Source: a virus (taxonomy: Duplodnaviria > Heunggongvirae > Uroviricota > Caudoviricetes). From it: a stretch of 40,938 nt of DNA. Both the position numbers and the translations under genes were made by a program. The stretch's first letter is position 1; every line of letters begins with the position of its first letter. This document shows positions 8,904 to 12,948 of the stretch, piece after piece. The stretch lies in the IMG/VR virus record IMGVR_UViG_2879742664_000009. One strand, written 5' to 3'. A model generated the notes under the pieces. It did not search any database. It worked only from the letters and a program-made list of their open reading frames with translations, and was not told the origin of the DNA.

Positions 8904-9115
8904 ATGAGACACTTTATCTATCAGGACGAAAAATCACATAAATTCTGGGCAGTTGAGCAACAGGGAAACGAGTTGCATATCAGTTGGGGAAAAGTTGGCA
9001 CCAAAGGGCAAAGCCAGATAAAAAGTTTTTCAGATGCTGCGGCAGCGGCAAAAGCGGAGCTTAAGCTGATTGCGGAGAAGGTGAAGAAGGGGTATGTGGA
9101 GCAAGCGAAGGATAA
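8904..9115 (+). pseudogene. molR: molR fragment 1 (WGR-domain N-terminus), truncated by IS600
   Basis: MRHFIYQDEKSHKFWAVEQQGNELHISWGKVG is a WGR-type N-terminus as in E. coli molR/yehH downstream of metG. Reading frame runs into the IS600 end. Confidence 0.7.
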
Positions 9116-9158
9116 TGAGGTGTACTGGCAATAGCGGACACTACCATTTGTTCTTTTT

Positions 9159-9977
9159 TTAAGCAGCCATCTGATGATATTTTTCCCTGAAGGCTGCCGG
9201 GGAGATATTCCCCAGACGAGAGTGACGACGCTGACGATTGTAGAAAATCTCAATGTATTCCCGTATTACTGAGATGGCTTCATCCCGGTTATTAAAACGA
9301 TAGTGGCTCAGGCTCTCATTTTTCAGCGTTCCCCAGAAGCTTTCCATCGGAGCGTTGTCGTAACAGTGACCTTTACGCGACATTGATGTTTTCAGACCAG
9401 ACTGCTCCTGTATGACCCGGTAATCGTATGCGCAGTACTGTGAACCTCGATCAGAGTGGTGGATTAGCCCGGCAGGTGGGCGCTGGCTCCTGAGCGCCAT
9501 AAACAGGGCTTTACCTGTCAGCTCTTTTGTCATGCGCTCTCCCATGGCGTAGCCGACAATTTCGCACGTATAAACATCTTTGATGCCAGCGAGGTACAAC
9601 CATCCCTCCTGTGTGGCAACATACGTCAGGTCCGCCACCCAGACCTGATTTGGTGCTGTAGGAGCGAACGTCTGGTTCAGCAGATTTGGCGCAACTGGCA
9701 GATTGTGGTTCGGGTTCGTAGTCGCTCTGAACTTGCGTTTCTGCTTACAGCGTAGCCTTAGCTCCTTACGAAGACGTGCCAGTCGGTCACGACCAACGAT
9801 GATGCCATTCTCTGCCAGCTCCGTCTGGAGCCGCCGGGTTCCATATGTTTCGCGAGTGCGGATATGTGCCACCTTAATCTCCAGTTTTAGCCGCTCATCA
9901 CTTTGTTTTCTGTCTGAGGGTTCATGCTGTACCCAGTTGTAATAACCGCTCCTGGATACACCAAATACCTGACACAT
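9159..9977 (-). CDS. IS600 transposase OrfB
   Basis: 272 aa, MCQVFGVSRSGYYNWVQHEPSDRKQ... Confidence 0.9.
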   Translation of the reverse strand: MCQVFGVSRSGYYNWVQHEPSDRKQSDERLKLEIKVAHIRTRETYGTRRLQTELAENGIIVGRDRLARLRKELRLRCKQKRKFRATTNPNHNLPVAPNLLNQTFAPTAPNQVWVADLTYVATQEGWLYLAGIKDVYTCEIVGYAMGERMTKELTGKALFMALRSQRPPAGLIHHSDRGSQYCAYDYRVIQEQSGLKTSMSRKGHCYDNAPMESFWGTLKNESLSHYRFNNRDEAISVIREYIEIFYNRQRRHSRLGNISPAAFREKYHQMAA

Positions 9978-10012
9978 CGCTTCAATGGGAAATTGTTGTC
10001 GCCATTGTTCGA

Positions 10013-10315
10013 TTAACGCGTATTTTTCAGCGACTCCTGTGCAAAATACGCTGTTGCTTTTTTTAATATATCTCGCTCAAGGCGAGCTTCATTTAACGCC
10101 TTACGCAGTTGCAGAATTTCAGATTCCAGTTCAGCCACCGTGCGGGAACCAGGAGTACCGAGCCCTTTTCTGGCGGCGGTAACCCATTGTCCTAAAGTGC
10201 CTTCAGGAAGGGATAATCGGGAAGCGCCTTCACTGATCGAAAGTTGATTTTCAAGAACCGTTCTGACAGCTTCGGCTTTGAACTCTTTAGAGTAACGTTG
10301 GTTTTTTCTGCTCAT
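10013..10315 (-). CDS. IS600 transposase OrfA
   Basis: 100 aa, MSRKNQRYSKEFKAEAVRTV... Confidence 0.9.
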   Translation of the reverse strand: MSRKNQRYSKEFKAEAVRTVLENQLSISEGASRLSLPEGTLGQWVTAARKGLGTPGSRTVAELESEILQLRKALNEARLERDILKKATAYFAQESLKNTR

Positions 10316-10379
10316 TATTAGCTCCTTCTGATGCCATTCTATTTCAGGAAGGAGTGTCCGTTAAACTCAGGCTACCTCA

Positions 10380-10961
10380 ATGTGTTGCGTCATATCAATC
10401 ATCCGTTCGCATTGACACTGCTTATACGTGTAGCCGGGCAAACTAAACGCTGTCACGATCGGATGACGAAAGCCATTGCTGCGTTCCCACATGCAGCAAT
10501 GGCGGCACTGACGGAACTTCTTGGGCAAAAAGAAGAGAACAGTTGGCGCATTATGCTAATGACAATGCTTATCTCACAACCAGCACTGGCAGAACAGGTC
10601 CTTCCCTGGCTCTCGACACCCGCAGTTGCCGTACTGAAATCATACCAGCAACAACTGACACAGCCCTCAAACCATGCCTGCGCCGATCTACTGCCTGCCG
10701 TATTAGTCTCACCGCCCTGGCTTTCGAAAAAGAAAAAATCTGTAATGCCGGTATTGGATTTAACGCCATTACCGTTGGAGTCATGCTGTACATTGACTGA
10801 GACGGCAGAAAAAGAGATTCATACAAGGCATCGCTGGCACGCACATCAAATAGACATCGGCCAAAAAGAGGATATTCAGAACTACCTGGCACGTCTGGGT
10901 TTCAATCGCTGGAATAATGGCCAGTATATGAAAGCGTCTGATGCTGTTGTAGAACTCTGGC
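10380..10961 (+). pseudogene. molR: molR fragment 2
   Basis: Open frame continues after IS600 (NVLRHINHPFALTLL...), then shifts frame and ends at IS911. Confidence 0.55.
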
Positions 10962-10969
10962 TGAAGTGG

Positions 10970-11809
10970 TCAACAAAAACTGGCCACCGAGTTAGAGTTT
11001 TTCCAGTATCGATTTTCCGATTCGTTTGGGGGTAACCCACCGTTATATTCGTGCGGTCTTAGTGCGCTGTAATATCCAACGATATAGTCCGTTATGGCGT
11101 GAGCTGCCTCGCTGAAGCTTACGTAACCCACCACCGGCATCCATTCGTTCTTCAGACTCCTGAAGAAGCGTTCCATTGGGCTGTTATCCCAGCAGTTTCC
11201 GCGCCGGCTTATACTCTGTCTGATCTGGTATCGCCACAATAACTGCCGGAACTGCCTGCTCGTATAATGACTGCCCTGATCGCTGTGGAACATCACCCCG
11301 CCGGGCTTACCACGGGTTTCCCATGCCATTTCCAGCGCTTTCATGGTGAGCCTGCTGTCCGGCGAGAACGACATGGCCCAGCCCACTGGTTTTCTTGCGA
11401 ACAGGTCGAGAACAACGGCGAGGTACGCCCAGCGCTTACCCGTCCAGATACAGGTCACATCACCGCACCACACCTGATTTGGCTCGGTCACGGCGAACTG
11501 CCTTTCAAGGTAGTTAGGGATAGCAACATGTTCATGACCACCACGTTTATACCGGTGAGTCGGCTGCTGACAGCTGACCAGCCCCAGCTCTTTCATGAGC
11601 CTGCCAGCAAGCCAGCGTCCCATCTGGTAGCCTCTCCGGGTTGCCATTGTGGCGATGCTTCTTGCTCCGGCCGAACCATGGCTGATGCCATGTAGCTCAA
11701 GTACCTGACTGCGTAATACAGCCCGTCTGCCGTCTGGTTTTTCAGGACGGTTTTTCCAGTATCTGTAGCTGCTGCGATGAACCCCGAACACTTGGCAGAG
11801 TGTGACCAC
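10970..11809 (-). CDS. IS911 transposase OrfB
   Basis: 279 aa, [30 protein letters not shown]... Confidence 0.9.
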
Positions 11810-11835
11810 AGGATAATGCGCTCTGAGTTTCCCGA

Positions 11836-12138
11836 TTATCGAGAACTGTTCAGGGAGTCTGACATCAAGAGCGCGGTAGCCTTTTTTAATATTTCATTCT
11901 CCATTTCAATGCGTTGTAGCTTTTTCCTCAGCTTACGTATTTCGATTTGTTCTGGTGTTATCGGAGAGGCTTTTGGTGTTTTGCCCTGACGCTCATCACG
12001 CAGTTGTTTGACCCATCTTGTCATTGTGGAAAGGCCAACATCCATAGCTTTGGCGGCATCTGCCACCGTGTATTTCTGGTCAACAACCAGTTGAGCGGAT
12101 TCGCGTTTAAACTCTGCGCTAAAATTTCTTTTTTTCAT
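11836..12138 (-). CDS. IS911 transposase OrfA
   Basis: [21 protein letters not shown]...; the track ORF has a 12-codon upstream extension, start set at MKKRNF. Confidence 0.88.
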
Positions 12139-12210
12139 TGGAGCACCTGTGTTGTTCTGAGGTGAGCATATCACCTCTGTTCAGGTGGCCAAATTCAGTG
12201 TGCCACTTCA

Positions 12211-12948
12211 GGCAGAGGGGAGATTATTCTGCGCTGATCAGCGAATTTAAAACCTTCTGGCACTCCTATCAACGGGAATGGCAGCTTTACATGTTAGCCG
12301 CCCTGCCTATCGAAAAAACAGCGCAGGCGTGGAATGTCCTCAGTAAAGAGCCACACGTCGGTGTCGAGTTTGTCATGACGCACCTGCAACTCGCTGGGTT
12401 ACAGGGTTTTATTCACTCCTTTTCACGCTATCCACAAGAAGCTCTACCTGTAGCACAATATTTTGCGGCTATCGAATTAGCGCCACTGATTGCCCGTGCC
12501 TTCAACAAACTCAAAACGCTACGCGAAAACGCCCGCACCTGGCTGTTGAAATACCCGGAACATGCCATTACCGGCCTGCTGGCTTCGGCGCTCGACAAAG
12601 CCGGTGAAGCACAGGATAACGCCCGCGCTGCCTTGCGTATGCTTACCGAAAATGGTCATCAGCCATTACTGCAAGAAATCGCCCGGCGTTATAACCAGCC
12701 GGAAGTAACCGACGCGGTGAACGCTCTGCTTGCGCTCGATCCCTTAGATAATCACCCAACAAAAATCCCCACTCTTCCGGCCTTTTATCAGCCATCGCTC
12801 TGGACGCGCCCGGTATTAAAAGCAAACGCCCAATCACTGCCAGATAGTGCCCTCCTCCACCTCGGCGAAATGCTCCGCTTCCCTCAGGAAGAGGCTCTGT
12901 ATCCGGGATTATTGCAGGTGAAAGATGCCTGTACCGCCGACTCACTGG
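12211..12948 (+). pseudogene. molR: molR fragment 3, truncated 3' by IS629
   Basis: Open frame from the IS911 end to the IS629 end (…LQVKDACTADSLV then IS). Confidence 0.55.

Follow-up and report, generated by a model that had tools for sequence, protein, structure and literature searches.

Large inversions between inverted copies of an insertion sequence (IS) are known from Shigella flexneri 2a strains, Yersinia pestis and Bordetella pertussis, and Yang et al. reportedly described, in 2005, IS-mediated pseudogenisation, deletion and inversion in Shigella genomes. Here we analyse a locus of this kind, situated in a stretch of 40,938 nucleotides (the window) that is held in IMG/VR as the caudoviricete record IMGVR_UViG_2879742664_000009. 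In this window, the remnants of molR, a gene with a WGR and a DUF4132 domain that lies directly downstream of metG, are separated by IS600 and IS911 and end at a copy of IS629. Set beside the inversions of S. flexneri 2a, Y. pestis and B. pertussis, the locus displays what is probably the same recombination between IS copies, the same loss of target duplications and the same exchange of flanks, and nothing in it is mechanistically different. It also resembles the IS-driven decay of Shigella genomes analysed by Hawkey et al. (2020, PMC7373316), which involves the same IS types (IS600, IS911, IS629 and IS1) and the same interrupted coding sequences, adjacent deletions and rearrangements between IS copies; the populations of clade S1/C1 and the molR locus were not analysed there.

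Two further described systems meet at this locus. To the right of molR, the window has the same structure as the oacC locus reported by Wang et al. (2014, PMC4206707), consisting of IS629, IS630, oacC and an SfII-like tail module. The published order in S. flexneri 6 strain CCH060 is adhesin/eae genes, IS629, IS630 and oacC, so that IS629 is preceded there by adhesin/eae genes, whereas IS629 of the window is preceded by molR. The molR gene itself is familiar in a damaged state from other Escherichia coli. In K-12, the same gene is already a pseudogene, annotated as yehF (b2115), a PF05406-family protein, plus the pseudogene yehH (b4499); its lesions differ from those of the window in that they are frameshifts without any IS. 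In O157:H7, O121 and RM14721, molR is also broken by IS elements, but at positions other than those in the window.

The comparison of related genomes very probably captures a four-step, IS-driven destruction of molR in Shigella clade S1/C1, the clade in which S. flexneri 6 groups with S. boydii (PMC7373316). Specifically, IS600 first entered molR, and 986 bp of the gene (nucleotides (nt) 213-1198) were lost beside it, giving rise to a state that is common to all relatives found; this loss may reflect recombination between two IS600 insertions or an IS-mediated adjacent deletion. Subsequently, IS911 inserted at molR nt 1780 with a GGC duplication, and in S. flexneri serotype 6 IS629 inserted at nt 2515 with a CTGG duplication, a state kept in CCH060. 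In the lineage of strain 64-5500, as read at the sequence level from one assembly, the molR copy of IS629 would finally have recombined with an inverted IS629 that had an eaeH-like gene on one side and the IS630 remnant-oacC prophage on the other. The outcome would be an inversion of about 701 kb that joined the 5' part of molR to the IS630 remnant and oacC and, at its other end, the eaeH-like remnant to the 3' part of molR, yehI, yehK and yehLMPQ. The locus is a pseudogene and a rearrangement scar, and no function was created.

The remains of the gene document how much of it has been lost. In E. coli NZ_LR536431, molR is intact (3795 nt, 1264 amino acids (aa)) and encodes a WGR domain at aa 6-69 and a DUF4132 domain at aa 988-1173 (Pfam), and the synteny apbC-metG-molR identifies the interrupted gene of the window as its counterpart. 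Three fragments remain there (Table 1), which are collinear, lie on the same strand and are each open in the molR frame. Together they amount to 1529 of 3795 nt and retain, of the domains, only the WGR part. The segment 8904-12948, to which the preliminary description refers, begins at the ATG of molR and closes with the final molR base ahead of IS629, which itself lies just outside. The expectation of the preliminary description that the fragments would form one molR frame holds for their order and for each fragment taken singly, but not for the gene as a whole: the deletion at IS600 is frame-shifting, in silico removal of the IS copies yields a sequence that loses the frame beyond codon 70, runs into a stop at codon 93 and represents 40% of the gene, and the last 1280 nt (nt 2516-3795), searched for in the window by alignment together with yehI, are absent. 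The first fragment extends into a fusion open reading frame (ORF) of 76 aa that ends within IS600. This ORF is present on 143 contigs, and Shigella records name it MolR or WGR protein; MolR, or molybdate metabolism regulator, is a legacy name that some records carry over to such fragments.

All three IS elements are complete. Names were assigned by full-length identity of at least 95% to annotated E. coli copies in RefSeq and not by comparison with ISfinder type sequences. By this measure, IS600 shows 99.6-99.7% nt identity to RefSeq-annotated IS600 copies of E. coli and IS911 shows 99.8% to RefSeq-annotated IS911, while IS629 is 95.7% identical to annotated IS1203, which we take to be equivalent to IS629, and 98.6% identical to an IS3-family copy of E. 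coli RM14721. The preliminary description had thus named the three elements correctly and placed them rightly in a WGR-domain gene downstream of metG. Consistent with membership in the IS3 family, all three measure 1.2-1.5 kb, have imperfect inverted repeats (27 nt in the case of the IS600 terminal repeats), start with TGA and end with TCA, and each contains an orfA/orfB pair in which orfB carries rve, rve_3 and HTH_21 domains. In IS600 and IS911, runs of A6-7G fall within the orfA/orfB junction or immediately ahead of it (reverse complement of about 10050-10060 and of about 11884-11890, respectively), and a putative slippery site, GAAAAAG, occupies 13321-13327 in IS629; near-identical copies are annotated in RefSeq with a presumed programmed frameshift.

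The flanks of the elements differ in what they reveal. Target duplications of 3-4 bp are present for the IS911 of the window (GGC) and for the IS629 of CCH060 (CTGG). At IS911, both copies of GGC proposed in the preliminary description are in place (10959-10961 and 12211-12213), the reference E. coli gene has a single GGC, and the empty site is seen in a related genome (CP026766). IS600 is flanked by TAA on the left and ATG on the right, and the IS629 of the window by TGG and CAG, respectively, so that neither has a target-site duplication, an absence attributable to the deletion in the case of IS600 and to recombination in the case of IS629. Of the three interruptions of one gene that had initially been described, that by IS911 therefore stands as a simple insertion, but IS600 sits at a deletion and IS629 at an apparent inversion breakpoint, where molR meets an unrelated locus.

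The order of these events emerges from related strains. The window matches the chromosome of S. flexneri 6 strain 64-5500 (CP026811.1; PMC9455713) with 0 mismatches over 19,134 + 17,149 bp. Ten comparison loci (given handles of the form L007 below) were obtained by an exact-protein look-up with the 76-aa molR-IS600 fusion ORF, and the loci include S. flexneri 6 CCH060 (CP099865, AKMW; L007), S. flexneri 6 CDC 796-83 (AERO) and S. boydii ATCC 9210 (CP011511). Both IS600 junctions, and hence the 986-bp deletion, are identical in 8/8 related loci that reach them. In L012 (CP026766), the IS600 lesion is the only one: molR nt 1199-3795 are continuous, and the sites of IS911 and IS629 are clean and empty. 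Four loci (L009, L011, L013 and L014, including S. boydii ATCC 9210) contain IS600 together with IS911 at the same site, while their IS629 site is empty; their molR IS911 (about 12200-12968) additionally carries an IS1 with a 9-bp TGGCGTGAG duplication at IS911 positions 134-142, a nested IS1 that the serotype-6 genomes lack. CCH060 and 64-5500 contain all three elements. In CCH060, IS629 is flanked as CTGG|IS629|CTGG and followed by molR nt 2512-3795 and yehI.

The most parsimonious order would accordingly be IS600 with its deletion, then IS911, then IS629 and lastly the inversion. The window by itself does not reveal this order, as the three elements are neighbours with none inserted into another; the order derives from their distribution among strains. 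The preliminary description had proposed that the locus records the order of IS expansion in the lineage. Strain comparison does yield an order of events, but the window does not, and what is ordered is three events at one locus, not the expansions of IS families. A search of 5,426 complete E. coli genomes gave none of the left-hand molR junctions into IS600, IS911 and IS629 (0/3). The draft genome of CDC 796-83 differs in another respect: to the right of its molR IS911 (L008 13306-13345), the place of molR is taken by a tRNA-like sequence, GGAATCGAACCC..., and beyond this come DUF1133 genes, a further IS600 copy and lambda-like tail genes. This arrangement reflects either another IS-mediated rearrangement or a draft mis-join.

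The evidence for the last step comes from the far breakpoint. In 64-5500, the 3' part of molR was located through the C-terminal ORF of CCH060, a 355-aa version of which is encoded in CP026811.1 (locus L028). The order of genes there is ecpR, ykgMO, ykgR, an eaeH-like remnant, IS629, CTGG with molR nt 2516-3795, yehI, yehK, IS1 and yehLMPQ, and it is here that the DUF4132 part of molR is located. For 3 kb leftward of this IS629, the sequence is the same as in L021, another Shigella genome, in which the eaeH-like remnant is followed by IS629, then by the IS630 remnant and oacC, in the parental arrangement; the published order of CCH060 (PMC4206707) matches this inferred parental arrangement. 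In CP026811.1, the two IS629 copies (1,500,137-1,501,446 and 2,202,571-2,203,880) are inverted relative to each other and 701,124 bp apart, their flanks are exchanged relative to the parental loci (L007 and L021), and the matching target duplications are lost.

Three single-nucleotide polymorphisms (SNPs) within IS629, at positions 33, 1241 and 1307, connect parents and products. The molR copy of CCH060, representing one parent, reads T/C/C at these positions, and the copies adjoining the IS630 remnant in L019, L021 and L025, representing the other parent, read C/T/T. The window copy reads T/T/T and the L028 copy C/C/C, which makes the two products exact reciprocal chimeras of the two parents. 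This pattern indicates that the IS629 in the window would combine the left end of the copy inserted in molR with the right end of the copy adjoining the IS630 remnant. Taken together, the reciprocal chimeras, the inverted copies and the exchanged flanks argue for homologous recombination between two IS629 copies that inverted about 0.70 Mb.

The partner copy appears to have had a history of its own. Its flanks do not form a duplication (GGG versus CAG), and the 5' part of the IS630-family gene was not found to the left of IS629 in L019, L021 or L025, so that the partner IS629 had already been sitting at a rearranged junction. In the finished genomes L019 and L025, other left flanks are found at the same oacC-side IS629. 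Together with the right flank of the molR IS911 in CDC 796-83, this shows that the IS copies at these loci repeatedly serve as recombination substrates, although the draft assembly of CDC 796-83 may mislead.

The rearrangement bears on published typing data for oacC, whose product acetylates RhaIII of the serotype-6 O-antigen (PMC4206707). Seven of the eight oacC primers published in that study have exact matches in the window, with amplicons of 350 bp and 3850 bp as published; among them, oacC-4F binds the minus strand at 15508-15527 and points back towards molR. The eighth, oacC-4R, is located at the other inversion end (L028 position 7256). Because the oacC-4R site lies at this far end, the oacC-4 linkage polymerase chain reaction (PCR) would fail on 64-5500. 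Among 77 serotype-6 isolates, 4 (HN157, HN12, G1038 and 51579) were negative in the PCR that links oacC to the eaeH-like upstream gene, which was ascribed to an unknown insertion or deletion (PMC4206707). The inversion may offer a testable, not a demonstrated, explanation for these four isolates.

Table 1 Features of the window, with positions counted from its first letter
Feature	Position	Strand	Details
TMP_3 (tape-measure) fragment	2758-4014		abuts IS629 at 4020
IS629, older and diverged	4020-5329	minus	upstream of apbC; inverted relative to the copy at 12949; 98.1% identity to the other IS629 copies, 25 differences; no target duplication
molR fragment 1	8904-9115	plus	nt 1-212, aa 1-70, entire WGR domain; 0/212 nt differ from E. 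coli L001:8905-9116
molR-IS600 fusion ORF	8904-9134		76 aa
IS600, complete	9116-10379	minus	1264 bp; TG...CA ends; orfA 10013-10315, orfB 9159-9977
molR fragment 2	10380-10961	plus	nt 1199-1780, aa 401-593; 4/582 nt differ from reference; no stop
IS911, complete	10962-12210	minus	1249 bp; inverted repeats; molR interrupted by simple insertion
molR fragment 3	12211-12948	plus	nt 1778-2515, aa 595-838; 12/735 nt differ from reference; no stop
IS629, complete, recombinant copy	12949-14258	plus	1310 bp; terminal repeats 92% complementary
IS630-family transposase pseudogene, 3' remnant	14259-14866	plus	Pfam DDE_3; collinear with E. coli JCKP02 from L006:6001 on, inside an annotated pseudogene coding sequence
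oacC	15080-16228	plus	serotype-6 O-antigen 3/4-O-acetyltransferase; Pfam Acyl_transf_3; primer matches; adjoins end of tail module
SfII-like prophage tail module	16508-about 29855		phage tail genes
Prophage capsid gene	29244-29855		Phage_capsid; truncated by IS629
IS629	29879-31188		GTTAC repeat on both sides
dinB-like (IMS) and GNAT genes	32070-33583		after IS629 at 29879-31188
TMP_3 (tape-measure) fragment	34558-35889		abuts IS911 at 35864
IS911, second copy	35864-38425		split at about position 1011/1012 by nested IS629; two extra bases TG at junction
IS629, nested in second IS911	36105-37414

The preliminary description had pointed to the insertion density in this gene, which is not beyond what the IS load of Shigella would lead one to expect. 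Medians of 194-286 detectable IS per Shigella chromosome are reported, and finished genomes contain more (Hawkey et al. 2020, PMC7373316); for 200-500 IS in 4.66 Mb a Poisson model predicts 0.8-10 bins of 3.8 kb with at least 3 IS. As only dispensable DNA tolerates insertions, the true expectation is higher, and a cluster of three IS within 3.8 kb is thus no more than chance could produce in a Shigella genome; of the window as a whole, 25% is IS.

The same reasoning bears on the possibility that molR and its neighbour yehI, which are WGR-DUF4132 paralogues adjoining the yehLMPQ MoxR/VWA cluster, are a preferred IS target or are selected for inactivation. Disruption does recur across Shigella, enterohaemorrhagic E. 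coli and K-12: molR/yehI are broken by IS1203 in O157:H7, by IS421 in O121 and by an IS3-family element in RM14721, yehI is hit by IS600 in two strains, and these independent events, together with those in K-12 and S. sonnei, fall at different sites. Such scatter fits a large dispensable target, and molR and yehI together offer 7.4 kb of dispensable sequence in which many chance hits are expected. As sites and IS types all differ, no sequence hotspot is apparent, and the gene is intact in many E. coli, preferred targeting or selection is an improbable explanation. A bolder version, in which molR/yehI would be antivirulence or costly genes that are selectively and recurrently inactivated in host-restricted and in pathogenic E. 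coli lineages and the IS629 inversion would be a recurrent serotype-6 marker accounting for the PCR-negative strains, is speculative to much the same degree. A PADLOC scan of MolR, YehI, YehL, YehM and YehP for defence systems gave no match.

Decay of this gene pair is also visible elsewhere in the comparison set. In 64-5500, yehI is decaying into ORFs of 80, 688 and 344 aa (L028 11078-14709), and in CP026766 it is hit by IS600 near its 3' end (L012 14082-18979). In S. sonnei assemblies, contig breaks cut off the WGR fragments at lengths of 80-104 aa, which suggests that an IS disrupted molR independently in that species, elsewhere in the gene.

Less probable again is that the junction of molR and IS629 with the IS630 remnant and oacC is an assembly mis-join, and that the true genome resembles CCH060 with three simple hits in a collinear molR. 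The junction occurs only in CP026811.1, where it is identical to the window; both are probably the same assembly, with the inversion resting on that one assembly. An assembler that switched paths inside a 1.3-kb repeat would give the same reciprocal SNP chimeras, and an independent assembly with the molR-IS629-IS630 remnant junction was not found among the contigs examined. These points weigh against the four-step history, as do three that concern its earlier steps: the deletion at IS600 has two candidate mechanisms, the order from IS600 through IS911 to IS629 assumes tree-like descent and no precise excision, and the flanking 5.6 kb, with 0-8 SNPs among strains, differ too little for an independent phylogeny. 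A mis-join is nevertheless very unlikely. CP026811.1 is a finished chromosome, and long reads, if these underlie it, would normally span a 1.3-kb IS. Additionally, the two junctions agree with each other across tens of kilobases, and the junction upstream of oacC varies in nature, both in the 4/77 PCR-negative isolates (PMC4206707) and in the other left flanks of L019 and L025. Recombination between two inverted IS629 copies is therefore preferred as the origin of this junction.

Finally, the idea that three independent simple insertions into an intact gene record the order of IS family expansion can be set aside as highly implausible, for although all three elements are complete, IS911 has its target duplication and the nearly identical IS629 copies in the window, along with IS629 nested in the second IS911 and in an IS630-family element, are consistent with late IS629 activity, IS600 and IS629 lack duplications in the window, 986 nt of molR are deleted and 1280 nt relocated, elements lying side by side hold no internal order that could be read without other genomes, and one locus yields an order of events only.

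Beyond molR, the window carries further traces of IS activity (Table 1). The right flank of IS629 at molR is foreign to that gene and consists of the IS630 remnant, oacC and the SfII-like tail module. The prophage capsid gene is truncated by another IS629, which has a GTTAC repeat on both sides and is followed by dinB-like and GNAT genes, so that the oacC prophage is itself a remnant. In the second IS911, the nested IS629 provides direct evidence within the window that IS629 moved after this IS911. The two tape-measure fragments each abut an IS and may derive from a single prophage or from two, broken up through additional IS-mediated rearrangement; the segment of S. boydii ATCC 9210 that would have separated them as two halves is not in the window. 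On the other side of the locus, the older, diverged IS629 upstream of apbC is present in all related loci and replaces rcnRAB-yehABCDE. By synteny, the interval from thiM to apbC in E. coli contains yehA-E and presumably rcnRAB as well. The essential-gene block apbC-metG and the remains of molR are bracketed by inverted copies of IS629.

Taken together, all components of the locus, namely IS3-family insertion, adjacent deletion, inversion between IS copies and the oacC prophage, are well-known Shigella biology, and no new mechanism or gene function is revealed. Although ordinary, this particular 701-kb inversion and the history in four steps may be undescribed: a literature search on molR, Shigella and insertion sequences found no paper, and a comparative study of Sf6 (PMC11708030) does not discuss inversions or IS. 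What the locus offers is a fully resolved small case of how a Shigella chromosome is dismantled, through an insertion, an adjacent deletion, more insertions and a 0.7-Mb inversion. Its junctions, furthermore, provide lineage markers for clade S1/C1 (IS600), for a subclade within it (IS911) and for serotype 6 (IS629). The oacC gene next to the breakpoint is relevant to O-antigen vaccines, and the inversion bears on the failed oacC linkage PCR.

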